Positions 2,520 through 33,174 of a stretch of 64,000 nucleotides of DNA are shown here, in pieces (positions within the stretch are counted from its first letter, which is position 1; each line of letters starts with the position of its first letter). The DNA is from Escherichia phage vB_EcoM_WFL6982. Where the stretch lies: sequence record MK373774.1; one strand, given 5' to 3'. The position numbers were made by a program, and so were the translations under genes. Under the pieces are notes generated by a model, which saw only the letters and a list, made by a program, of their open reading frames with translations, did not search any database and was not told the DNA's origin.

Positions 2520-3620
2520 TTACGCTGTGAAGATTTTATCCCACATCGCAACAACTGCATCTCGATTATACTTCTTCCATACTGCTTCAGCACGTTTAAC
2601 TCGAGCTTCGTATGTGTCAGTGAATTCTAATACAGCTTTTGTGTAAAGCGCAACTACTTCTTTCTTAGGAGTAGAGGAATCAATTTCTACACGCACTGTA
2701 TCTGGGTCGTATTCGAATGTCGCATGAGGATAATCCTTAAAAACTAACTGGATTACAGGGACACCTTTAGAGATGGCTTCAATAGAACTATTCTCTACCG
2801 TACCTGTGTCAGGACACGTATTAATAAGTGCTTTAGCTGTTTTAAGACGTTCCATAATTTCACTGTGTGGAGCATCAATAATAACAGGATATTTAGCTGG
2901 TGGTGCCCATTTACTAGGACAGTATCCTGCACCATTTTCGCCTAGTGCTTTAATCGCTTCAAGAGCAACATCAGTACGACGCATTTTAGTGTCATAACGT
3001 TGTGCACTAATAATCAGATCAGTCGCTGGAAGAACTTCAGGTTTCTCATTCAAACAAATAACCGGATAATCTTCGGCTTCAAACAACGGATTTGCTCGCC
3101 AATAATCATAATCAATTTTGTCAGTCAGACCTGAAGTCATATAACAATATTTACGTTCAAATTCACGGAAGGCTTTAGTAGGAGCATAACTCTTACCACC
3201 ATTCTTATGAATTTGAATAGTCTGGTCCCAAATTTGAACAATGCCACGAGATACCGGTTCAAATGGTGTTGCCATAAAATTCTTATGAACTTTAGAGAGA
3301 CCTGCGTCTTTAATTGCCTGAACGGTTAGTTTAGTCGGTTCCATAGTAACAACAAAATCGTATTCATGGATGCCGGCTAGTTCAACAATCTTACGAGCCA
3401 TAGTATAACTCATACCTAGACCGAATTTAGTCAGATGACCAACAGGATGATGATTAACCTTCCAATCACCAAATGTGTCATTATCAAAACCAATATAATC
3501 AATATCGGCACCGATGGACACAAGATATTTCAACACATTTAAATGTACTGCTTCAAGACCACCTTGTACACGGTCAGGATTAAATGGGACTGCACGAGAT
3601 GGGATAAACATAACTTTCAT
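2520..3620 (-). CDS. putative glycosyltransferase (candidate 5-hmC sugar transferase, arabinosyltransferase-like)
   Basis: 366-aa ORF inserted between rIIA.1 and gene 39 where T4 has no such gene; N-terminus MKVMFIPSRA.. resembles a GT-B-type glycosyltransferase start; phage lacks alpha-gt/beta-gt homologs. Confidence 0.65.
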   Translation of the reverse strand: MKVMFIPSRAVPFNPDRVQGGLEAVHLNVLKYLVSIGADIDYIGFDNDTFGDWKVNHHPVGHLTKFGLGMSYTMARKIVELAGIHEYDFVVTMEPTKLTVQAIKDAGLSKVHKNFMATPFEPVSRGIVQIWDQTIQIHKNGGKSYAPTKAFREFERKYCYMTSGLTDKIDYDYWRANPLFEAEDYPVICLNEKPEVLPATDLIISAQRYDTKMRRTDVALEAIKALGENGAGYCPSKWAPPAKYPVIIDAPHSEIMERLKTAKALINTCPDTGTVENSSIEAISKGVPVIQLVFKDYPHATFEYDPDTVRVEIDSSTPKKEVVALYTKAVLEFTDTYEARVKRAEAVWKKYNRDAVVAMWDKIFTA

Positions 3621-22268: not shown

Positions 22269-22631
22269 TTAAAAGAATTTAAATTTTTTCTTGGTTCGTT
22301 CATTAAAAGCTTGTTGTACTTGCATTGTAACACATTTTTCAACATGTGGTGCAAGTTCTGCTTTTCTGTCCTGGTCAAGAACTGCAAAGTCCATTACGAT
22401 TTTACCATCAACCCAGTCTAGTTTTGTAATATAGACTATATGATGGGAACCGTCTTCAAGTGTAATCAGAATCTCTTGAATGACATTTTCCATTGCTGAA
22501 CGGACAATTTTAAGAGATTCATTAAACACTCGTTCTTTGCGAATGTCCTCCCCTTCCGAAGAAGGGGATTCATCAACGATTTCTAGATTTAAATCATCGA
22601 GATTATTCATCGAAATCTTCCATTTCGTCAA
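22269..22631 (-). CDS. hypothetical protein (gene 40 position)
   Basis: 120-aa ORF between 41 and uvsX where T4 has gene 40; identity not verified. Confidence 0.4.
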   Translation of the reverse strand: MTKWKISMNNLDDLNLEIVDESPSSEGEDIRKERVFNESLKIVRSAMENVIQEILITLEDGSHHIVYITKLDWVDGKIVMDFAVLDQDRKAELAPHVEKCVTMQVQQAFNERTKKKFKFF

Positions 22632-23775
22632 GGTCGTTTTCTATATCTGCTGCAGACGGAGCATCAGAAGTTTTAACCGGAACTTTAGTTGTTGCTTTGC
22701 AATTAATAAGGTCGTTAACAGCGTCATCAACTTCTTTAATAGAAGAGATAGCACCTAGTTTATATTTAGTTTCAATTGCATCTCGGAAAGGTTTGTGTTT
22801 AAACAAAGGTCCCCAGAATTCTACACAATCAGTAGCTTTAGCACGCCACGATTTCTCTTCACGAATCATTTCGCCTGTTTCTTCGTCAAGGAATTCACGA
22901 GCATACCAACCAGCTTTAGGCTTAACTACAAAACCAATTTCAGTTGCCATTTCTAGCAAGCCACTGAATGGGTCGATACCACCATCGAAATTAACCGTGA
23001 TCGGGAAAGTAGATTTCTCTTTAACTGTACGAGATTTTTCTGCTTTCAACGTGAAGTCATAACCGGTCAATTCTGTACCTTCTTTAACCTGACGTTTAGA
23101 GATAAAGAATACAGTGTTAGCAGAATAAAGAATACCTGTACCACCGCCCATAATCTCTTTAGGATACAATCCGCCAATTTCCATTGCGGTATGGTTAATT
23201 GCAACACACGGAATATCTTTAATAGTCAGATACGGGGTCACAATACGGAAAAGAGATTTAAGTGCCTTAGCACGAGACATATCACCTACAACTTTCTCGT
23301 TCAATGCATCTTCAGTTTCTTTCTTAGATGCAGTATTACCGATTGAATCGATAAAGATAATAACTTTATCACCGCGTTCAATCGCGTCAAGCTGATTAGT
23401 CATATCAACTTTAAGTTGTTCGACTGACTGAATTGGTGTATGAACTACACGGTCTAAATCAACACCCATTGAACGAAAATAAGATTCTGAAGCACCAAAT
23501 TCTGAATCATAGAACAAACAAATTGCATCTTTATATTTCTTCATATATGCTGCAACCATAGTTAGTCCAAACAACGTTTTAAAGTGTTTAGAAGGAGCAG
23601 CAAAAATAGTCAAGCCTGATTGCAATCCTGCATTCAGAGCACCACCTAATGCAATATTCAACATCGGAATACGAGTAGGGACTTCATCACGATTATTAAA
23701 CAGCTTAGACTTAGTCAAGTCTGCAGTCATTTTAGAAGTAGAAGCTTTAATCAGACGAGATTTTAAATCAGACAT
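22603..23775 (-). CDS. uvsX: UvsX recombinase (RecA/Rad51-like)
   Basis: 390 aa; MSDLKSRLIKASTSK.. near-colinear with T4 UvsX as recalled. Confidence 0.95.
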   Translation of the reverse strand: MSDLKSRLIKASTSKMTADLTKSKLFNNRDEVPTRIPMLNIALGGALNAGLQSGLTIFAAPSKHFKTLFGLTMVAAYMKKYKDAICLFYDSEFGASESYFRSMGVDLDRVVHTPIQSVEQLKVDMTNQLDAIERGDKVIIFIDSIGNTASKKETEDALNEKVVGDMSRAKALKSLFRIVTPYLTIKDIPCVAINHTAMEIGGLYPKEIMGGGTGILYSANTVFFISKRQVKEGTELTGYDFTLKAEKSRTVKEKSTFPITVNFDGGIDPFSGLLEMATEIGFVVKPKAGWYAREFLDEETGEMIREEKSWRAKATDCVEFWGPLFKHKPFRDAIETKYKLGAISSIKEVDDAVNDLINCKATTKVPVKTSDAPSAADIENDLDEMEDFDE

Positions 23776-23873
23776 TGTATTTTTCCATAGGCATCATTAT
23801 ATTTTACTCATGTTTAAAAGATAAGATGATTATATACTAAGAGTTATACAGCATTTAAAACTTTAAATGGCTC

Positions 23874-24422
23874 TTAACGAGCCCATTTAATGATTTCTGT
23901 AATCAAATTATTACGTTCGCTTGCATTAAATCCTATAACTTTGTTAGAACCATCATGATTAAGTAATTGATACGTTTGGATTTTGTTATGAATTGCAAAC
24001 TCTTCAAAATGTGAAATGACTGTATTAAAACCGAATGAAGACAAAGTAATAAGGTCGTCTTCAAAACTTTCAGTCATTTCGTTACGTGTTAAAATAATTG
24101 TGAACACATCATGGTTTTGGCAAAGACGAACATAATCCTGTTCATAAACGTCAAGAACCGAGTCCGCATCTTGTCGAATACGTCCATAAACCCAGTTACT
24201 AATATATCCACGGTCTAATAGATAAATCTTAGTAGGGTCTAAATAATTCAACATCGTTTCGAAACAGCCAACTTCATTTCGAGACTTAACATCGAAACGC
24301 CCATCAACTGTTCGTTTAGGGAAATCAATCTTTACATATCTTTCACTAATTTCCATTATGTCATTAATGAAAGTTGTTTTACCAGCATTATCCGGCCCGT
24401 CTACTAAAATAATTTTAGCCAT
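23874..24422 (-). CDS. P-loop nucleotide kinase, thymidylate-kinase-like
   Basis: 182 aa; P-loop LVDGPDNAGKTT resembles TMPK GxDGAGKTT; LDRGY resembles the TMPK DRY motif; occupies T4 beta-gt locus. Confidence 0.5.
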   Translation of the reverse strand: MAKIILVDGPDNAGKTTFINDIMEISERYVKIDFPKRTVDGRFDVKSRNEVGCFETMLNYLDPTKIYLLDRGYISNWVYGRIRQDADSVLDVYEQDYVRLCQNHDVFTIILTRNEMTESFEDDLITLSSFGFNTVISHFEEFAIHNKIQTYQLLNHDGSNKVIGFNASERNNLITEIIKWAR

Positions 24423-24423
24423 T

Positions 24424-25323
24424 TTATTCCTCGATTACGACATCTTCGTATTTAGGTATATTATACGGTGAAGAAATTAAAGCATTAAAGTAGATGAACT
24501 CACCAAGACCTGGATGGAATACTTCTTCAGGATTTTCGAAATATTGAATCTTCGGACGTCCTTTAAGAATTTGATAGTACTCAGTTTTAGTTGGATTAAA
24601 AATTCGAATCAGCGCTTCTTCAGGATACTTATTTCTGTCGAAACTATTATTTGGATCAGTTATATAAAGCGGTTGACCTAATTGAATTGCGCATTCAACC
24701 ACTTGTTCAAAACGATAGCATGGGTCACTAATTCGAAATGGATGAAAAATACCATCTAGATGAATAGGAGCCAAATCACCTACAAGACGCTGCATGACGG
24801 AAGGACGTATAACTTTCTGCGTTACGATAATCTTATTACCATCTGCACCTGCGTTAACCAGCACTTCTTTTTGACGTTCATTCAACACAGTAGTTTGAAG
24901 TGAACGATTAACAGACAACATGTCGGTTTTTAAGAATTCATCAATATAAAAACGTGGTTTATTAGGGTCTGCAGTGATATTGAAATTGAATTCTACATCA
25001 AAAGCGCCGTCATATCCAGTGATATCTGTGATTAGAAAATCACAATCATAATAAGCAATTAATGAATCAACCACAAATTCATTTTCAGACCAAAAATATT
25101 TACGAGTGTTATACGCGTTATCTTTATACCATAATGGAACAAACTTAAATTCTGGGAAAAGACGTTCACATTCTTTAATATCAGATGCATTACGTGGATA
25201 TGTAATCACATCACCCGGATTAGCACGGTGCAAATGAAGTTGGAAGTTGCCATCCTTAAGGATAGCATACTGTCCAGTTTCATAAGACCGCATACTCAAG
25301 ATAGGTACGCGGAAAATAGCCAT
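24424..25323 (-). CDS. hypothetical protein at beta-gt locus (function unknown, possible DNA-modification enzyme)
   Basis: 299-aa ORF between TMPK-like gene and gene 42; no recognisable motif. Confidence 0.55.
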   Translation of the reverse strand: MAIFRVPILSMRSYETGQYAILKDGNFQLHLHRANPGDVITYPRNASDIKECERLFPEFKFVPLWYKDNAYNTRKYFWSENEFVVDSLIAYYDCDFLITDITGYDGAFDVEFNFNITADPNKPRFYIDEFLKTDMLSVNRSLQTTVLNERQKEVLVNAGADGNKIIVTQKVIRPSVMQRLVGDLAPIHLDGIFHPFRISDPCYRFEQVVECAIQLGQPLYITDPNNSFDRNKYPEEALIRIFNPTKTEYYQILKGRPKIQYFENPEEVFHPGLGEFIYFNALISSPYNIPKYEDVVIEE

Positions 25324-26039
25324 TAGTCAAGGAATCCTTTAACATAATCAAAATCACGTTCAAACACATGGGCACTTACCATGGTATGAGTATAATCACC
25401 AACTTCTACACCACATTCGTTAGCGATATAATGAAGTAATTTTCCTTGGAGATAAAAATCCAACTGCATAACAACAGCACAGTTCTGGGAACGCATATGA
25501 CAGTGGGTATAAAGCTTACCGTCACGAATATAATAAGTCACTGAGTCAGTACATGGATATTCAAGCGTTTCGTCCGAATCAAGCAAAGCCTGATCAGAAC
25601 TTTCTAGAATTTGGAACACAACTCTTCGGGAGTTAGGCTTCTCTTTAAGTTCTTTTAGAAGAGCTGGTAATTGGGCCGCAATGCGAGGACCATAGAAAGT
25701 GTTGAAGTTCGCCGGCAAAACATCTGATTTTGGTTTAGAAATAAATTTAGCGACATTAGGATATGCCTTAAACGCTTCTTCTGCGTTGGTACCACCAGAA
25801 ATCATAAACTTCCAGAAGTCTTCGGCATATTCATAAGAGATGCGGTTAATACGTGGGTCAGTCATTTTGAATGATGATGGAGTGTCAACAACTACTGTCA
25901 TAGACCCAATTTCATTACAACGTCCAATACGAGAATCAGTTACGAATTCCGGGTTTTCTAAAATTTCACGATTGACTGCTTTAAATGCGGTTTGAAAATC
26001 TGCGGCTTTGATATATTTCATTGTGTTATGTTTTCCCAT
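25323..26039 (-). CDS. 42: dCMP hydroxymethylase (thymidylate synthase fold)
   Basis: 238 aa; TS-like fold with catalytic Cys context (YPCTD); T4 gp42 size and position. Confidence 0.85.
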   Translation of the reverse strand: MGKHNTMKYIKAADFQTAFKAVNREILENPEFVTDSRIGRCNEIGSMTVVVDTPSSFKMTDPRINRISYEYAEDFWKFMISGGTNAEEAFKAYPNVAKFISKPKSDVLPANFNTFYGPRIAAQLPALLKELKEKPNSRRVVFQILESSDQALLDSDETLEYPCTDSVTYYIRDGKLYTHCHMRSQNCAVVMQLDFYLQGKLLHYIANECGVEVGDYTHTMVSAHVFERDFDYVKGFLD

Positions 26040-26081
26040 GTTTACCTCAATACAATTTATTATATACTCAATTCGTAAAGC

Positions 26082-26321
26082 TTATTTGAATTTCTTGACA
26101 ATGTTGATATAACGTAAAGCTTCAGCATCGATACTTCCAAGAACACTATGAAGAAATGCATCAGCGTAGTATTCCAATTGAACAGGTTCTTTAATCACTT
26201 TAGCCGCTTTAGTTTCAAACAGGCCCATAAGGGCCTTTTTAAGAATTTGTTCGTTAGTGTTCAGTTTAATAGTCAAAATCTCTTCATTAAGTTGGTGATT
26301 AAAAGTTTTTCTAGAAATCAT
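26082..26321 (-). CDS. hypothetical protein
   Basis: 79-aa ORF, ATGA overlap with upstream gene. Confidence 0.45.
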   Translation of the reverse strand: MISRKTFNHQLNEEILTIKLNTNEQILKKALMGLFETKAAKVIKEPVQLEYYADAFLHSVLGSIDAEALRYINIVKKFK

Positions 26322-27487
26322 TCCGGGTACCTCAGAGCGTCATCAGAGTTAGTTATATCAATAATAGATATAGAGTTTTCTGCTAACCCGTTTTTAGATA
26401 ATTGACGTTTATAATATCTTTCACAATATGTACACGTTGATCCACAGATTTCATTAGCACAATCAAAATCTGGATGTCTGAACCACCTTTTTTCTAAAAA
26501 GCCATCTAACAAAGAGGTTTCAATATTTACTGTATGTGAAAACTCAGTTTCATTTTCAAGAGTGAAAATAGTCTCTAAAGGCTTCCACAGTTCTAACAAA
26601 TTACCTTCAAACTTTTCAGAAGCGTATGCTTCAAGAACTTTCAAAATGTAGTCTGTGCTACCTGTACGTCCTGAAACTTTGAATTGAGTGATACCAATAT
26701 CATTATAAAGTTTCAAATCTTGAGGACGAACAAAACGAGTTCTCAACCAGTTAAATGGGTCTGTATCACGAGCTTTAATACAGTGCTGCATTGGATATCC
26801 GTTTAAGGATTTAGCATCATCAGCTGTAACATCAGTACTATGGAAAATATAGCAAGAGTCACGATAGCTACAATGTGTTGTATACCCTTTACCAGCGTTA
26901 GAACAGAACTCATTTACAAGAACTTCAAATATTATATTGTTCTTATTGCAAAACTCTGCTGCACGCTTCAGGAAAGAAACTGAACGGTTCTTATGAATTC
27001 CACAGCAGACCTTTTTGATATTGTATTGGTCATGTAAGTATTTTATTTGAGTTACAGCATCGACATGTAGAATTGTTGAAACTTCAATCTCAATGTCTTT
27101 ATTGACTTCACGAACAATTTCCATAACAACAGGGTTAGCGATAGTAATACGCCATACGCCTATTGACCAAAGATACTGAACATAATCCTGAATAGCTTTC
27201 TTCTTCCACTCGACTAGTTCTCTTTTTGAACCAGGATTTATCGTGTTGAGTGTATAGTTAAAGCAAATACCTAATTCGTTACAACGTTTAACGTAATCTT
27301 CTAACATCTTTTTGTCGACGTCAGGAAGCCTAAAATCAGGTCTGGCTGCTACAAAAGCCATTTCTCTTGTAGAGCCGTATACTTCGTTTATCAAGCTATT
27401 AGGATAAGTTTTATTGAGCTCTACGATTTTATCAAGAAGAGCTAAATCAAAATTCGTTCCGATTTTAAAAGTATTCATTTTTTGCAT
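26318..27487 (-). CDS. Cys-rich U32-like (peptidase U32 / putative Fe-S enzyme family) protein
   Basis: 389 aa; IEIEVS..YLHDQYNIKKV and EVLVNEFCSNAGKGYTTHCSY blocks resemble E. coli YhbU-type U32 proteins; C-terminal CANEICGSTCTYC cluster. Confidence 0.45.
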   Translation of the reverse strand: MQKMNTFKIGTNFDLALLDKIVELNKTYPNSLINEVYGSTREMAFVAARPDFRLPDVDKKMLEDYVKRCNELGICFNYTLNTINPGSKRELVEWKKKAIQDYVQYLWSIGVWRITIANPVVMEIVREVNKDIEIEVSTILHVDAVTQIKYLHDQYNIKKVCCGIHKNRSVSFLKRAAEFCNKNNIIFEVLVNEFCSNAGKGYTTHCSYRDSCYIFHSTDVTADDAKSLNGYPMQHCIKARDTDPFNWLRTRFVRPQDLKLYNDIGITQFKVSGRTGSTDYILKVLEAYASEKFEGNLLELWKPLETIFTLENETEFSHTVNIETSLLDGFLEKRWFRHPDFDCANEICGSTCTYCERYYKRQLSKNGLAENSISIIDITNSDDALRYPE

Positions 27488-27533
27488 CTCGCGTTAATTG
27501 ATGCGATGGTTTTTGCAGGTCTTACTTAAATTA

Positions 27534-27935
27534 TTATAGATTCGGTTTATATGATTTAAATGTTTCGAATTCGCCTTTATTCATAAGAGCTTTGAATTCG
27601 TCAGGACGCATAGCTTTGTCGTCGATAATCCAATCATATACTGGTTTATGTGTTAGCAAATTATGGTACTTCAAGCCAATGTTTGCCAAGTTCTGAATCA
27701 GACTTGGGAGAATGTCAATTGCTATACGACCAGGACCTACTGACTTCATACCGCGAGCAGTGTAAAGCGTTATGGTATGCCCTGCATCATACAGGGCATT
27801 AATGGCAGACACCATTTCGACGTCTGGTTTGAAGTTCACGTAATCACGATTGTTATTCCACTCTGTTATACAATCATCGACATCAAAACAAAGATTAAGC
27901 ATGTTTTCTACACGGTGCATTAGATTCGTTCCCAT
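27534..27935 (-). CDS. small HAD-superfamily phosphatase
   Basis: 133 aa; HAD motif I FDVDDCIT, motif II T (LYTARG), motif III K...DD (KPVYDWIIDDK). Confidence 0.6.
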   Translation of the reverse strand: MGTNLMHRVENMLNLCFDVDDCITEWNNNRDYVNFKPDVEMVSAINALYDAGHTITLYTARGMKSVGPGRIAIDILPSLIQNLANIGLKYHNLLTHKPVYDWIIDDKAMRPDEFKALMNKGEFETFKSYKPNL

Positions 27936-29605
27936 TGATGAGTGATATCGCCACCGATTGGACGATAAGAAACACCAGTTTCTTTATCAGTTAGTACCCA
28001 TTTACCAGGATTTTTTGTAATCAGAGTAGCCGTTACAGGTTCTGCTACGTCATAACTAATAGAGCCGTCTTGAAGTACACGGCCCATGTTACGTAATTGC
28101 TTAGTCAGAAGTTCCATACCTTTATAATATGCAGCTACCGCTTTAAGTGGATTATTCTTGAAATAACCACCTAATGCAATCCAGATAATTGCCACTGCCA
28201 AATGATGATACTCGTTAAACGAACTCATCTTTCCATATTTGTAAACTAATGGATTGATGTTAATAGTCACATTACAAGTTGTTTCATCAATAGTAAACTG
28301 TCCCCAGGTCGGATTAGCATTGAATTCATCATAACCTGAAACAGCGTAAAGCACTTTAGCTTCATCGTACAATTTTGGCCCGTAAATCTTGGTTTCGCCA
28401 AAATATCCGCGAGGGTCGATAAACTTGACTTCGCCATCATCAGTAATCATAGTATTACTGAAGTTCGGGTCACCATGAATAACAGAGTACTGTCCCTGAG
28501 AACGATTATGATAACGAATAAGGTGTTCTAAAGCTTGTTTCAGCATTGGCTTCAGACGTCCAATCTTAGTGTAGTTCACATGTGTGATTTTACCAAATGA
28601 ATCAATCAATGGTTGAATGCTTTCACAACGATCAATAACTTTCGTATAGAACTCTTTAGTGAAATCACGGCGAACAGTTTCAGGACTTACAAAATACGTG
28701 TCTGTGCTGAATTTCAGTGCATCTAAAATTGCATCAACAATTTGTGGACGAGCAAGACTTGATTTGGATTTAATATATTCAAATGCCGGCTTACCTTTAA
28801 TGCGTTCCATTTCAAAGTTATTTTCATTAACAGAAACTAACTGAGGAACTGAATCTGATTTCACTTTCAAATACCACGAAATCTCATCTTTCTGAAGAGC
28901 TCGTCCCTGTTCGGTTAATGCGAATTTAGTTACAGTTTCTTCACCAATTTCAACTGCATTAAAACTACGATTAAGTTCACGAACTTCATGAGCTTTTTCA
29001 AGTTTAGGCATATCACCTAAATCAATTATATTCATAAGCTCTGATTTATTGAATGCGCCGCTGTAAAGGAATTCTACGAAATCACGTCCTTTGCAGTATT
29101 CATGAATTTCCTCATCGGTAGAACCCATATAGAATTCCCAGTCTTTGAACTGATAAATTCCTACAACATTACCACCTGTTGAACCTACGTTAGTGATATT
29201 TTCACCGTCGAAATTATACCGACATTCGTCACCCTTAACATAGATTGCGTTAACATTCCAAGACCATGAACCAAAATCAGGAATAATATCACACCAGTTA
29301 ACAATTACATTATGGCCGTCTAAATCTTTGTGTAATTTAGCAAGAGCATAAGCAGAACCGTACGCTTCATCAACTGTACGAATAGTCACATTGAACCCTT
29401 CTTGCTCACAATAAGCTCGAACAGTTTCAGCAAATTTTGAATGAACTACTACAATAATTTCATCTGCGCCAAGGTCAGAATAAATTGTATACAAATTGCT
29501 CAGAATAGTGTCTTGTTTATAGTTAACAAGCACCTTAGGAATATGATGCGTTATTGGATATAAACGAGTCGCCAGTCCAGCACCAAGAATAACAGCTTTT
29601 TTCAT
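27920..29605 (-). CDS. bifunctional sugar-1-phosphate nucleotidyltransferase / sugar kinase (APH/choline-kinase fold)
   Basis: 561 aa; N-terminal AVILGAGLATRLYPIT..PKVLV nucleotidyltransferase signature; C-terminal kinase motifs IHGDPNFSN and FIDPRG. Confidence 0.7.
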   Translation of the reverse strand: MKKAVILGAGLATRLYPITHHIPKVLVNYKQDTILSNLYTIYSDLGADEIIVVVHSKFAETVRAYCEQEGFNVTIRTVDEAYGSAYALAKLHKDLDGHNVIVNWCDIIPDFGSWSWNVNAIYVKGDECRYNFDGENITNVGSTGGNVVGIYQFKDWEFYMGSTDEEIHEYCKGRDFVEFLYSGAFNKSELMNIIDLGDMPKLEKAHEVRELNRSFNAVEIGEETVTKFALTEQGRALQKDEISWYLKVKSDSVPQLVSVNENNFEMERIKGKPAFEYIKSKSSLARPQIVDAILDALKFSTDTYFVSPETVRRDFTKEFYTKVIDRCESIQPLIDSFGKITHVNYTKIGRLKPMLKQALEHLIRYHNRSQGQYSVIHGDPNFSNTMITDDGEVKFIDPRGYFGETKIYGPKLYDEAKVLYAVSGYDEFNANPTWGQFTIDETTCNVTININPLVYKYGKMSSFNEYHHLAVAIIWIALGGYFKNNPLKAVAAYYKGMELLTKQLRNMGRVLQDGSISYDVAEPVTATLITKNPGKWVLTDKETGVSYRPIGGDITHQWERI

Positions 29606-29646
29606 GTTGAAGTCCTCATTGGTAAGTAGGAGTATTGTACACTATT

Positions 29647-29790
29647 CTAGTTAAAGCATTCATACTTTGCTTGTAGTCCAATCATAATCCATCCAATTAC
29701 AAGTGTTGGAATCATTACTGGAGCCGTTAAGCTCCAGTAGATAGTCATGACAAACATCAATAGTAAAAGTCCTATTGTTATTGCTTTCAT
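29647..29790 (-). CDS. small single-pass/hairpin membrane protein (possibly Imm-like)
   Basis: 47-aa hydrophobic ORF MKAITIGLLLLMFVMTIYWSL.., ATGA overlap with upstream SIS gene; not in ORF track. Confidence 0.4.
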   Translation of the reverse strand: MKAITIGLLLLMFVMTIYWSLTAPVMIPTLVIGWIMIGLQAKYECFN

Positions 29791-30422
29791 TGTTCGCCTC
29801 GTAACATGGCACCTAGTGCACCGCCTGGATGGAACTTAAGGAAATCATTAGAGGTAAATCCACGTTCAGACGAAAGGTTGATAGCGAACGTATCGATAAG
29901 CGCTAACAACAATGTAGTAGACATTGTCGGAGCTAAAGAGTTCTCGTCAACTTCTACCGCGATACCGGTACAGAACGTATAATCAAAAAGAGCTTCGTAT
30001 TCTTGTGGAATGTCAGGGTTACAATGTAACAGAATCTGTTTAACCTGAGGACGAATCATACGAAGATGTTTAGCAACACCTATCATTTCTTCAGTCTTAC
30101 CAGAACGACTGATGTGAACTAATACATCATTAGGTGCAATAAATCCTGCGTCACCATGAGAATAATGCCCAGTGTTCAAATACATGCTAGGAATACCTAG
30201 TGAAGCAAAAGTCTCGGAAGCTTTAGTTGCGATATTAGCGTTCTTACCAACACCTGTAATAATTACACGACTTTCATAATTACTCAGTCCAGGGCGACGA
30301 AGAGTTTCTAGAATAGCATTATAACGAGCAGGGTTTTGACTAATTACTTTAGCCATAGTGGCAAGAGAAGAAGCTTGTTTTATGATTGCGTCAATAGCGA
30401 TAGTGATTGGTGTAGTTTTCAT
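29787..30422 (-). CDS. SIS-domain sugar-phosphate isomerase, D-arabinose-5-phosphate isomerase (KdsD/GutQ-like, no CBS domains)
   Basis: 211 aa; RVIITGVGKN..HGD..ISRSGKT..LAPTMSTT..HPGGALG aligns block by block with E. coli KdsD SIS domain as recalled. Confidence 0.85.
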   Translation of the reverse strand: MKTTPITIAIDAIIKQASSLATMAKVISQNPARYNAILETLRRPGLSNYESRVIITGVGKNANIATKASETFASLGIPSMYLNTGHYSHGDAGFIAPNDVLVHISRSGKTEEMIGVAKHLRMIRPQVKQILLHCNPDIPQEYEALFDYTFCTGIAVEVDENSLAPTMSTTLLLALIDTFAINLSSERGFTSNDFLKFHPGGALGAMLRGEQ

Positions 30423-30462
30423 ATTTCTCTCATTTAATTAGTTTACCGTCCATGACATTATA

Positions 30463-33174
30463 TCAAAAATCGAACATATCGAACAGAGATGCTTTCTTCT
30501 CATAATCGAGTTTCGCTGCTGATGTGAATCCTTCAAGTGGTTTAATAAATGTCTTCTCAAGGAGAACCGTGTAGTCCATCCAATGAAGTACATCATCTTT
30601 GATTAAATCAGTGATTTCAGTACCAGAAGGCCATGCGATACATTTATCACCGAATGGGTTTCCTTCACGTAAAGGCAGAACATATACTTTTTCACCTTCT
30701 ACAACTTGTGGTGCATCGATATTACCTTTGATAGCCCGGTTATACGTCAGAATTCCACGAATATGGAACGGGCATTTAGGACCCGGGAATCCACCTACGT
30801 CGTATTTAGCAATGTTATTCGCAGAAGATACCGACGCGATGCTAATATAATTCAATTGACGGAATTCTTTTTCAAACTCTTTAAAATATTCTTGTAATGA
30901 TTCTTCACCTTCTTGAAGCATACGACGAATACATTCTTTAAGAGCTTTCTGTACTGCTTTAGGAGTCGAAGATTTCTGAGTCTCTAGACCCATGATTTTG
31001 AGTTTAGGCTCAGCGTAACGAGTACCTTCCATATCCCACACGTTTAATGCATAACGTTTCTTACCAGTCCAAAATCCGCCAATACCTTTAGAACCAAGCG
31101 GAGGCCCAGCGATAGCTTCTCGGTCCATGAACATTAAGTGTTGTTTATTGTTCATGTATTCACACATTTCACGGAAACCTCTATCAATAGCAGGTTCCAT
31201 ACGTTCACGAGCAAACTTATCTAAGAAGTCTACCCAATGGTTGGTATCACGGAATTTAGATTCACCAACCTTATCGATAATTTTATCAGCAGATACGTAA
31301 ATGGAGTCTGTATCACCATATAGAACGAAAGCTTCACCTTCTGTACCACAAACTTCATTCAGATATTCATTAACTTTACGTTCAATCCACTGTAAAGCCA
31401 TTTGCCCGAATGTTGTGATTGCAGTAGCATTACGCAAATCATAATAACGGAACCAAACGTTTCCAAGTGCACCATAAAGCGAGTTGATAAGCAATTTACG
31501 GTTAATTTGTGCAGTCATACCTGCAACTTCAGTACGTTGAGCTCTAAACAACATTTCATTAAGAGATTTAGCAGACAACTTTTTAATCTTTTCTTTAATC
31601 TCATCACTGAAGTCGAAACGATAATCAACATCTAATGGTTCGTCAACAGAAAGATTAGGATTATGCAATGCCTCTTTAATTATTTCGCCATTACGTTGAG
31701 CTGCAAGCATGTAACCTTTATGTTCTTTACGTTGATTAAAGACCTTAGTGATTTCAGTTGGAACTACACCATCACGGTCTTTATAATACATCATGCCGTT
31801 AGGAGAACAACTGTACACATCTGAAGGACGTTCAGCGATTGCGTTAATATAATCATGCAATGGAGCTACTTTAAACGTTCCTGCTATTGTTTCCGGGCTA
31901 ATATTCACTTGGCGAATAATACTTGGATACAGAGATGTAAGGTCGAAACTCATTACATATTTGTATCGATTTGGAATAGGTTCCTTAACAAAAGCGCCGG
32001 GATAAGGTTGAACCGGGTGAGAACGACCTTGTGGAATCACCTTGTTCTGCTCTTTAAGGCTATTAAAAATAATAGCATCCCATGTTTTAATTGGGCTAAA
32101 CACAGATTGAATCTGTATCTTAGCATAATAACCCATGTCCAAGCTCAAGTTGATGAACTGACGCTTAGAATCAATTTGCAATACACGATATACGTCGATA
32201 ATGTTATAAGAAATATATCGTTGGTGATTGCTTTCACGAAGCTTAGAAATAGGGCCGTCGTATTTCAGTTTGCCAACGTTCAATTCAAATTCTGAAATGT
32301 AATCCAGAGAATACGACGGTTGGTTCGTGAAAGAGAACTTTTTGTAAAGGTCAATGTAATCAAGAACAGAGATACCGAACAATGTAATGATTTCACGAGA
32401 ACCATACATGTTTTCGATAACTTTAACACGAGTTTTACGATGTGGTGATAAACGTTTCGCAGTAGATTCGCCAAAAATATTCTTGATTCGGTTATACACA
32501 TATGGAATATCAAATGACTCAACGTTCCATCCAGTCAAAATGACAGGAGTTTTCTGTTGCCAGAAGTTGAGATATTCCATCAACAATTCTTTTTCGTTAT
32601 CGAACGGCATATAAATGATTTTATCGATAATTTCGGATGGAACTTCATCGCCGCCTTGTTCTTGAAGCTTAGCCGCAATTTCGATAGACCATTCTTCTAC
32701 ATTACCATATGGAGAATTCAATAGATCAAATACGTAGAACCTGTCGTCAATTGAGTCATAATGGGTGATAGCATCAATTGGATGTTTTGCTTGTGACGGC
32801 TCAGGGAACCCGTCCGGAGATGTTACTTCGATGTCGAAGTTAGCCACACGAATTTTTGTATGGTCGTATTTGATTTCATAGTTATAAGTGTCAGACAAAT
32901 ACGCCAATTTGAAATCGTCCATGCCAAGTGCTTCAAGTCCGATATCTTCCATGCGTTTAATCCATTGGGAGGCATCACGCATATTAGCGAACAACTTACG
33001 AGTACACGGCTTACCGTAGATATCGAAATATTTCGTAGCCTGACTTTCTGGACAATGAGCAAACAGTGATGGTTTATATTCTACTTCACGAGTACGTTCA
33101 CGGCCATTAGAATCGATGTAACGTTCAAAAATTGAATCACCAATCTGTTCAACCGTTAAGTAAAATTCTTTCAT
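30463..33174 (-). CDS. 43: DNA polymerase (family B) with 3'-5' exonuclease
   Basis: 903 aa; exo motifs FDIE, YNIIDV; pol motifs DxxSLYPS, YGDTDS; sequence recognised as RB69-type gp43 from memory. Confidence 0.97.
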   Translation of the reverse strand: MKEFYLTVEQIGDSIFERYIDSNGRERTREVEYKPSLFAHCPESQATKYFDIYGKPCTRKLFANMRDASQWIKRMEDIGLEALGMDDFKLAYLSDTYNYEIKYDHTKIRVANFDIEVTSPDGFPEPSQAKHPIDAITHYDSIDDRFYVFDLLNSPYGNVEEWSIEIAAKLQEQGGDEVPSEIIDKIIYMPFDNEKELLMEYLNFWQQKTPVILTGWNVESFDIPYVYNRIKNIFGESTAKRLSPHRKTRVKVIENMYGSREIITLFGISVLDYIDLYKKFSFTNQPSYSLDYISEFELNVGKLKYDGPISKLRESNHQRYISYNIIDVYRVLQIDSKRQFINLSLDMGYYAKIQIQSVFSPIKTWDAIIFNSLKEQNKVIPQGRSHPVQPYPGAFVKEPIPNRYKYVMSFDLTSLYPSIIRQVNISPETIAGTFKVAPLHDYINAIAERPSDVYSCSPNGMMYYKDRDGVVPTEITKVFNQRKEHKGYMLAAQRNGEIIKEALHNPNLSVDEPLDVDYRFDFSDEIKEKIKKLSAKSLNEMLFRAQRTEVAGMTAQINRKLLINSLYGALGNVWFRYYDLRNATAITTFGQMALQWIERKVNEYLNEVCGTEGEAFVLYGDTDSIYVSADKIIDKVGESKFRDTNHWVDFLDKFARERMEPAIDRGFREMCEYMNNKQHLMFMDREAIAGPPLGSKGIGGFWTGKKRYALNVWDMEGTRYAEPKLKIMGLETQKSSTPKAVQKALKECIRRMLQEGEESLQEYFKEFEKEFRQLNYISIASVSSANNIAKYDVGGFPGPKCPFHIRGILTYNRAIKGNIDAPQVVEGEKVYVLPLREGNPFGDKCIAWPSGTEITDLIKDDVLHWMDYTVLLEKTFIKPLEGFTSAAKLDYEKKASLFDMFDF

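Follow-up and report, generated by a model that had tools for sequence, protein, structure and literature searches.

Coliphage HY126 and phage RB69 provide the closest described counterparts of the gene analysed here, a 561-codon open reading frame (ORF) of Escherichia phage vB_EcoM_WFL6982 (MK373774.1), located in a 64,000-nucleotide stretch of its DNA that is referred to below as the window. In RB69, ORF053c and ORF052c are one 561-residue ORF split by a sequencing error, and a role in UDP-arabinose biosynthesis was proposed for it together with the SIS protein ORF055c (Thomas et al. 2018, PMC6024577). The modified base of RB69 is arabinosylated 5-hydroxycytosine and not 5-hydroxymethylcytosine (Lee et al. 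2026, PMC13326640), and arabinose is present in the DNA of the RB69-type phage group (PMC6024577, PMC13326640, PMC13390438). The rejoined RB69 product, gp52:53, was modelled as a nucleotidyltransferase plus a kinase and equated with AfhE of HY126 (PMC13326640). AfhE is reported to be a bifunctional D-arabinose-5-phosphate kinase/UDP-D-arabinose pyrophosphorylase (He et al. 2026, via PMC13326640) and AfhF a Mg2+-dependent phosphatase that converts arabinofuranose 1,5-bisphosphate (Araf-1,5-P2) into arabinofuranose 1-phosphate (Araf-1-P) (PMC13326640). The WFL6982 gene very probably encodes the phage UDP-D-arabinofuranose (UDP-Araf) synthase, homologous to AfhE of HY126 and gp52:53 of RB69. The enzyme family is already described, and the gene adds no discovery to the published work.

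The gene is one uninterrupted ORF, as the first-pass annotation of the window had read it, with all the motifs quoted there located in the translation. A Shine-Dalgarno sequence, GAGGA, lies 8 nt 5' of the ATG, and the ends of the ORF are matched by the cloning primers of Thomas et al. 2018 (PMC6024577). The 1686-bp region recurs with 100% identity and unchanged coordinates in Escherichia phage vB_EcoM_WFK (MK373775.1), a member of Mosigvirus, the genus of RB69, where the protein is 100% identical to WFK_00048. Residues 1–218 display 98% identity with RB69ORF053c, both proteins falling within one 90% cluster, and identity is at least 97% among about 150 Mosigvirus records. At the level of the locus, the WFL6982 gene reproduces the AfhE arrangement, with a fusion of about 560 residues beside AfhF, an arabinose-5-phosphate isomerase and a 5-hydroxy-dCMP (5hodCMP) synthase in a Straboviridae genome. 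The AfhF neighbour is identical to PDB entry 9iqw, entitled 'HY126 D-arabinose 1,5-diphosphate phosphatase AfhF'. Since this neighbour is identical and conservation across Mosigvirus is so high, we infer that the 561-residue protein is near-identical to AfhE itself. Similarly, HY126 seems to be very closely related to the WFL6982-type phage, because the ThyA-like gene of the cluster matches PDB 9iqc/9ir2/9iqu over its full length; the depositors named these entries 'Thymidylate synthase' and we take them as the HY126 enzyme from their accession codes, which are adjacent to 9iqw. AfhE and gp52:53 share the roughly 561-residue architecture, the neighbours and the genus Mosigvirus, with no detectable difference from the WFL6982 protein, AfhE being known by description. 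In agreement with this, records of the BASEL phages annotate the gene as 'putative enzyme involved in UDP-arabinose biosynthesis'. Propagation of Shewanella phage Thanatos requires its homologue TH1_060, which is 54% identical (PMC12838424).

The protein comprises an N-terminal nucleotidyltransferase domain, a C-terminal kinase domain and a short tail (Table 1). Conservation was read from an alignment of 38 homologues, reaching down to 25–30% identity, out of 321 homologues found by database search. In the N-terminal domain the segment ILGAGLATRLYPIT (residues 6–19) holds the G-x-G-x(2)-T-R-L signature as GAGLATRL at residues 8–15, followed by the catalytic lysine K24. Positions G10, R14, K24, D106, D195, G197, D198 and K201 are invariant. 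The Pfam NTP_transferase model (PF00483) matches residues 3–99 with 39.1 bits against a gathering cut-off of 21.2 (E = 8.4e-10), and the fold of the domain is GT-A-like alpha/beta, its acidic metal ligands being conserved. Alternatively, the GT-A-like domain would be a glycosyltransferase that attaches the pentose to DNA or to dCMP, as was suggested for Thanatos TH1_060. A 'glycosyltransferase family A' match is listed in CDD (PMC6024577, PMC12838424), and several public records carry the name 'bifunctional protein GlmU'. The glycosyltransferase reading of the domain was rejected, and the GlmU annotation is given to a protein that bears a kinase, not an acetyltransferase, domain; we regard either identity as highly improbable.

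The C-terminal domain displays a bilobal, protein-kinase-like fold. Its catalytic loop, HGDPNFSN at residues 377–384, conforms to HxDxxxxN and is followed by the metal-binding aspartate in IDPRG at residues 396–400, and the lysine/glutamate pair of the N-lobe is matched in position by K227 on a strand and E241 on a helix. The invariant positions are K227, E241, H377, G378, D379, N384, D397, P398, R399 and G400. Some homologues carry precomputed PF01636 matches and, at the level of sequence, it stands as a divergent representative of the choline-kinase/APH fold class. Structural comparison of the 561-residue protein places LicC and LicA among its best matches, with 11–21% sequence identity, and further matches include glucosamine kinase and maltokinase. 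The two folds announced in the first-pass annotation are thus those found, the nucleotidyltransferase by its Pfam score and GxGxR signature and the kinase by its two invariant motifs and its fold. The outcome named there as refuting, a different fold for either half, did not arise. The comparison with a 'LicA/LicC style' enzyme given there also holds, and the extent of the nucleotidyltransferase, put at 130 residues, is corrected to about 210.

The resemblance to LicC and LicA raises the possibility that the phage protein phosphorylates a small alcohol (choline or ethanolamine, for example) and makes its CDP derivative, with no role in arabinose metabolism. In contrast to the phage fusion, however, the CTP:phosphocholine cytidylyltransferase and choline kinase of Streptococcus pneumoniae are separate proteins that use choline and CTP with no intervening phosphatase, and the identity to them is low. 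The phage gene lies among genes for an arabinose-5-phosphate isomerase, AfhF and a 5hodCMP synthase, homologues fused to SIS domains exist, and the DNA of this phage group contains arabinose, as reported in the three papers cited above. A choline function of the LicA/LicC type was rejected on the gene context, and we give it next to no weight. FKP (L-fucokinase/GDP-fucose pyrophosphorylase) is likewise a fusion with the pyrophosphorylase at the N-terminus; a GHMP-fold kinase was not found in the phage protein and FKP was rejected as its family since the folds differ. HldE pairs a kinase of the PfkB/ribokinase fold with a transferase of the cytidylyltransferase fold. Neither a PfkB-fold kinase nor a cytidylyltransferase-fold transferase was among the matches of the 561-residue protein, which combines protein-kinase-like and RmlA-like folds, and HldE was rejected as its family on this difference. 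The C-terminal tail is conserved at identities of about 36% and above, largely among T4-like phages, and is absent in more distant homologues and in the fusions described below; it might tether the enzyme to AfhF or the transferases and so allow channelling.

Taken as a UDP-Araf synthase, the protein would act twice in a five-step route. The SIS isomerase would turn host ribulose 5-phosphate into D-arabinose 5-phosphate (Ara5P), the anomeric C1 of which would be phosphorylated by the C-terminal kinase domain with ATP, giving Araf-1,5-P2. The HAD phosphatase AfhF, encoded downstream and translationally coupled, would then take off the 5-phosphate, leaving Araf-1-P for the N-terminal RmlA/LicC-fold domain to join with UTP into UDP-Araf, and the proposed arabinosyltransferases of 299 and 366 residues would attach the arabinose to 5-hydroxycytosine in DNA. 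The folds, catalytic residues, gene context and identity of the neighbour were computed here; the literature and a PDB title supply the substrates, the step order and the use of UTP. A 5-phosphate kept until C1 is fixed would lock the furanose ring, so that the kinase would have to precede the phosphatase. The ADP-heptose pathway (GmhA, HldE, GmhB) follows the same logic of isomerase, kinase, phosphatase and nucleotidyltransferase via a bisphosphate; it is analogous, not homologous.

Several points weigh against this assignment. On the 561-residue protein all Pfam kinase models stay below their gathering scores, the top sub-threshold match being Fructosamin_kin with 17.6 bits (cut-off 22.4), followed by RIO1 and EcKL, around residues 344–409. 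Searches of the phage collection did not place the HY126 genome among their top matches, so that the identity with AfhE is indirect; HY126 is listed in NCBI taxonomy as unclassified Caudoviricetes, and a structure of AfhE was not found in the PDB by sequence and profile searches, the best matches being HddC and LicC. Purified Thanatos TH1_060 displayed no pyrophosphorylase activity with xylose-1-phosphate and any nucleoside triphosphate (PMC12838424), a negative that fits strict substrate specificity. The order of substrates rests on a secondary account (PMC13326640) and on the title of PDB 9iqw, and the entry on the DLP3 homologues in Table 1 of that account reads 'Dephosphorylates Araf5p to Ara; Phosphorylates Ara to Araf1p'.

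In the order of that table, which is also the order proposed in the first-pass annotation, the HAD phosphatase would first free D-arabinose from Ara5P, the kinase would act anomerically on the free sugar and the nucleotidyltransferase would activate arabinose 1-phosphate. The presence of glucosamine kinase and maltokinase among the structural matches of the kinase domain favours this sequence of events. The APH-fold anomeric kinases NahK and AmgK, which act on free sugars, also count for it. In contrast, the text of PMC13326640, after He et al., has Ara5P converted into the 1,5-bisphosphate and then into the 1-phosphate, the depositors of 9iqw named the identical neighbour as a phosphatase of the 1,5-diphosphate, and the ADP-heptose pathway passes through a bisphosphate with the same enzyme logic. 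Furthermore, free D-arabinose is mostly pyranose and would not guarantee the furanose form that the DNA carries. Dephosphorylation ahead of the kinase step is improbable on this evidence, if less so than a choline or glycosyltransferase function, and the route published for AfhF runs in the reverse order. The description of the synthesis as 'salvage-like', from free sugar, likewise does not hold, since the pathway reported for HY126 proceeds de novo from ribulose 5-phosphate. True salvage is performed by AmgK/MurU, an anomeric MurNAc kinase and a MurNAc-1-phosphate uridylyltransferase that are encoded by separate genes and use a free sugar with no bisphosphate intermediate. The connection of the fusion enzyme to an NDP-arabinose is sound, the AfhE family being published as a UDP-D-arabinose pyrophosphorylase, and so is its functional link to the adjacent HAD phosphatase and to Ara5P, the neighbours being a KpsF-type isomerase and AfhF.

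Table 1. Coordinates of the predicted UDP-Araf synthase gene, its domains and motifs, and associated features in the WFL6982 window.
Feature	Coordinates	Strand	Basis or remarks
Bifunctional Ara5P 1-kinase/UDP-Araf pyrophosphorylase gene (predicted)	27920..29605	-	Single ATG-started ORF, 561 codons + TAA
Nucleotidyltransferase domain	28976..29605	-	About residues 1-210; GAGLATRL 8-15, K24, D106 (in WCD), D195/G197/D198/K201
Nucleotide-binding signature G8-A-G-L-A-T-R14	29564..29584	-	Sequence reading; G10 and R14 invariant in 38 homologues
Eukaryotic-like (choline kinase/APH-type) kinase domain	28082..28975	-	About residues 211-508; K227 on strand 224-229, E241 on helix 232-247
Catalytic loop H377-G-D-P-N-F-S-N384 (HxDxxxxN)	28454..28477	-	H377, G378, D379 and N384 invariant
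I396-D-P-R-G400, metal-binding Asp, DFG equivalent	28406..28420	-	R399 invariant, family-specific
C-terminal tail, 53 residues (509-561)	27923..28081	-	Per-region alignment coverage; model predicted local distance difference test (pLDDT) 74-86
KpsF/GutQ-type SIS arabinose-5-phosphate isomerase, without CBS domains	29787..30422	-	NCBIfam kpsF E = 8.8e-32, KdsD E = 3.8e-30
47-aa strongly hydrophobic ORF	29647-29790	-	Between SIS gene and 561-aa gene; ATG overlaps SIS stop (ATGA)
Candidate T4-type middle (MotA-box) promoter TGCTTTA-N12-TACAAT	29634..29658	-	Pattern match, stopping 29 nt short of the ATG; putative function
HAD-superfamily phosphatase, AfhF equivalent (D-arabinose-1,5-bisphosphate 5-phosphatase)	27534..27935	-	100% identical to PDB 9iqw
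Peptidase_U32-family protein, 389 aa	26318-27487	-	Pfam E = 7e-11, weak UbiU match; between AfhF and ThyA-like gene
ThyA-like 5-hydroxy-dCMP synthase, makes acceptor base	25323..26039	-	PDB 9iqc/9ir2/9iqu, E = 7.9e-161, residues 1-238 (full length)
Putative first DNA arabinosyltransferase, 299 aa, RB69 gp46:47 positional equivalent	24424..25323	-	Synteny with RB69 (PMC13326640)
Thymidylate-kinase-like protein	23874-24422
Putative second arabinosyltransferase, 366 aa, RB69 ORF003c/gp3 positional equivalent	2520..3620	-	Position (PMC6024577, PMC13326640); phrog_8302

The gene is surrounded by a minus-strand replication module of the T4 type, with the gp45 clamp, the gp44/62 clamp loader, RegA and the gp43 polymerase (30463–33174), and the arabinose block is inserted between gp43 on one side and UvsX (22603–23775) and gp41 on the other. 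Within the block the order is SIS isomerase, 47-residue ORF, 561-residue ORF, HAD phosphatase, Peptidase_U32, ThyA-like protein, 299-residue protein and thymidylate-kinase-like protein. The SIS gene also has a Pfam SIS match and belongs to a PHROG named 'arabinose 5-phosphate isomerase'. The product of the 47-residue ORF, MKAITIGLLLLMFVMTIYWSLTAPVMIPTLVIGWIMIGLQAKYECFN, is a 'hypothetical protein' in a BASEL record. Three candidate starts are present in the AfhF ORF, M1 (27935), M6 (27920) and M12. The ATG of M6 overlaps the TAA of the 561-residue gene (TAATG), the 9iqw construct begins at M6, and the model has pLDDT below 50 at residues 1–9; thus the annotated 133-residue AfhF start is probably five codons too long and M6 the true start. 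The function of RB69 gp48, which is ThyA-like, is described in PMC13326640. The 299-residue protein had no match in the Pfam search and belongs to phrog_3891, listed as of unknown function, and the gene of the putative second transferase lies upstream of a topoisomerase gene in the annotation of MK373775.1.

The candidate middle promoter ahead of the 561-residue gene belongs to an enriched class of sites, the window containing 19 matches to the MotA-box pattern TGCTTNA-N11-13-TANNNT where shuffled sequences predict 3.5 ± 1.8. These sites lie mostly on the coding (minus) strand and another is found at 24460–24484, upstream of the thymidylate-kinase-like gene. A scan of positions 23700–30600 for sigma-70 promoters and terminators detected no excess over chance, with 25 sites and an expectation of 26.

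The Peptidase_U32-family protein displays the Cys-rich motifs EFCSNAGKGYTTHCSYRDSC and CANEICGSTCTYC. Members of the U32 family include the O2-independent hydroxylases UbiU/V, TrhP, which makes 5-hydroxyuridine in tRNA, and RlhA, which makes 5-hydroxycytidine in rRNA. The neighbouring ThyA-like protein is described as an O2- and flavin-dependent 5hodCMP synthase. Conservation of the U32 protein is 82–100% across 221 phage records, the hosts being Escherichia, Klebsiella, Serratia, Proteus, Yersinia, Shewanella and their relatives, and its gene is absent from all Acinetobacter phages, including 57 records that carry an AfhE homologue. No assigned function for it was found in the accessible arabinosylation literature, and the protein may be an anaerobic C5-cytosine hydroxylase.

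The more distant homologues, with 31–35% identity, are single polypeptides that carry HAD, SIS, nucleotidyltransferase and kinase domains. At 890–955 residues these polypeptides align over the whole of the 561-residue protein (35% identity, E = 3e-81) with the catalytic motifs intact. P0084 (L002 8001–10781), P0091 and P0093 combine the four domains and P0118 corresponds to L011 8001–10679. The contigs that bear the fusions display hallmarks of giant viruses (MutS7-HNH, Rpb2, RNA_pol_N) or adjoining sugar epimerase and GT2 genes, and one fusion comes from the transcriptome of the slime mould (amoebozoan) Ceratiomyxa fruticulosa. A ThyA-like gene was not found on the giant-virus-like contigs bearing fusions. 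Such fusions could conceivably be self-contained synthases leading from ribulose 5-phosphate to UDP-Araf for glycan or virion glycosylation and not for DNA modification, a tentative reading that we hold to be somewhat doubtful. Two uncultured large phages, L005 (159 kb) and L009 (350 kb), have the SIS gene and, further along, the nucleotidyltransferase-kinase, HAD, ThyA-like, EndoIV-like and thymidylate-kinase-like genes in this order, with 35–37% identity. A Flavodoxin_2 gene beside the SIS gene could encode a flavin reductase for the hydroxylase. The HAD of the large phages is of the Cof type (Hydrolase_3) and not of the AfhF type, and a comparison of the HAD of the fusions with AfhF gave E = 0.085, so that the two were judged unrelated. 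Thus, the phosphatase step is always present and is recruited from different HAD subfamilies.

The 561-residue protein is 'hypothetical' or 'GlmU' in more than 150 Mosigvirus records and its PHROGs family is listed as of unknown function. In the same way, public records misname AfhF as 'phosphoheptose isomerase' or 'capsule biosynthesis protein', the 5hodCMP synthase as 'dCMP hydroxymethylase' and the U32 protein as 'peptidase' or 'collagenase-like protease'. The practical value of the result lies in the transfer of annotation. Arabinosylation of DNA is described as guarding against restriction enzymes and CRISPR-Cas, and enzymes of the GmrSD type such as BrxU still cleave the modified DNA (PMC13326640, PMC13390438). 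Because UDP-D-arabinofuranose is not a metabolite of E. coli, the phage enzyme would constitute the committed, phage-supplied step in the arabinosylation of 5-hydroxycytosine.

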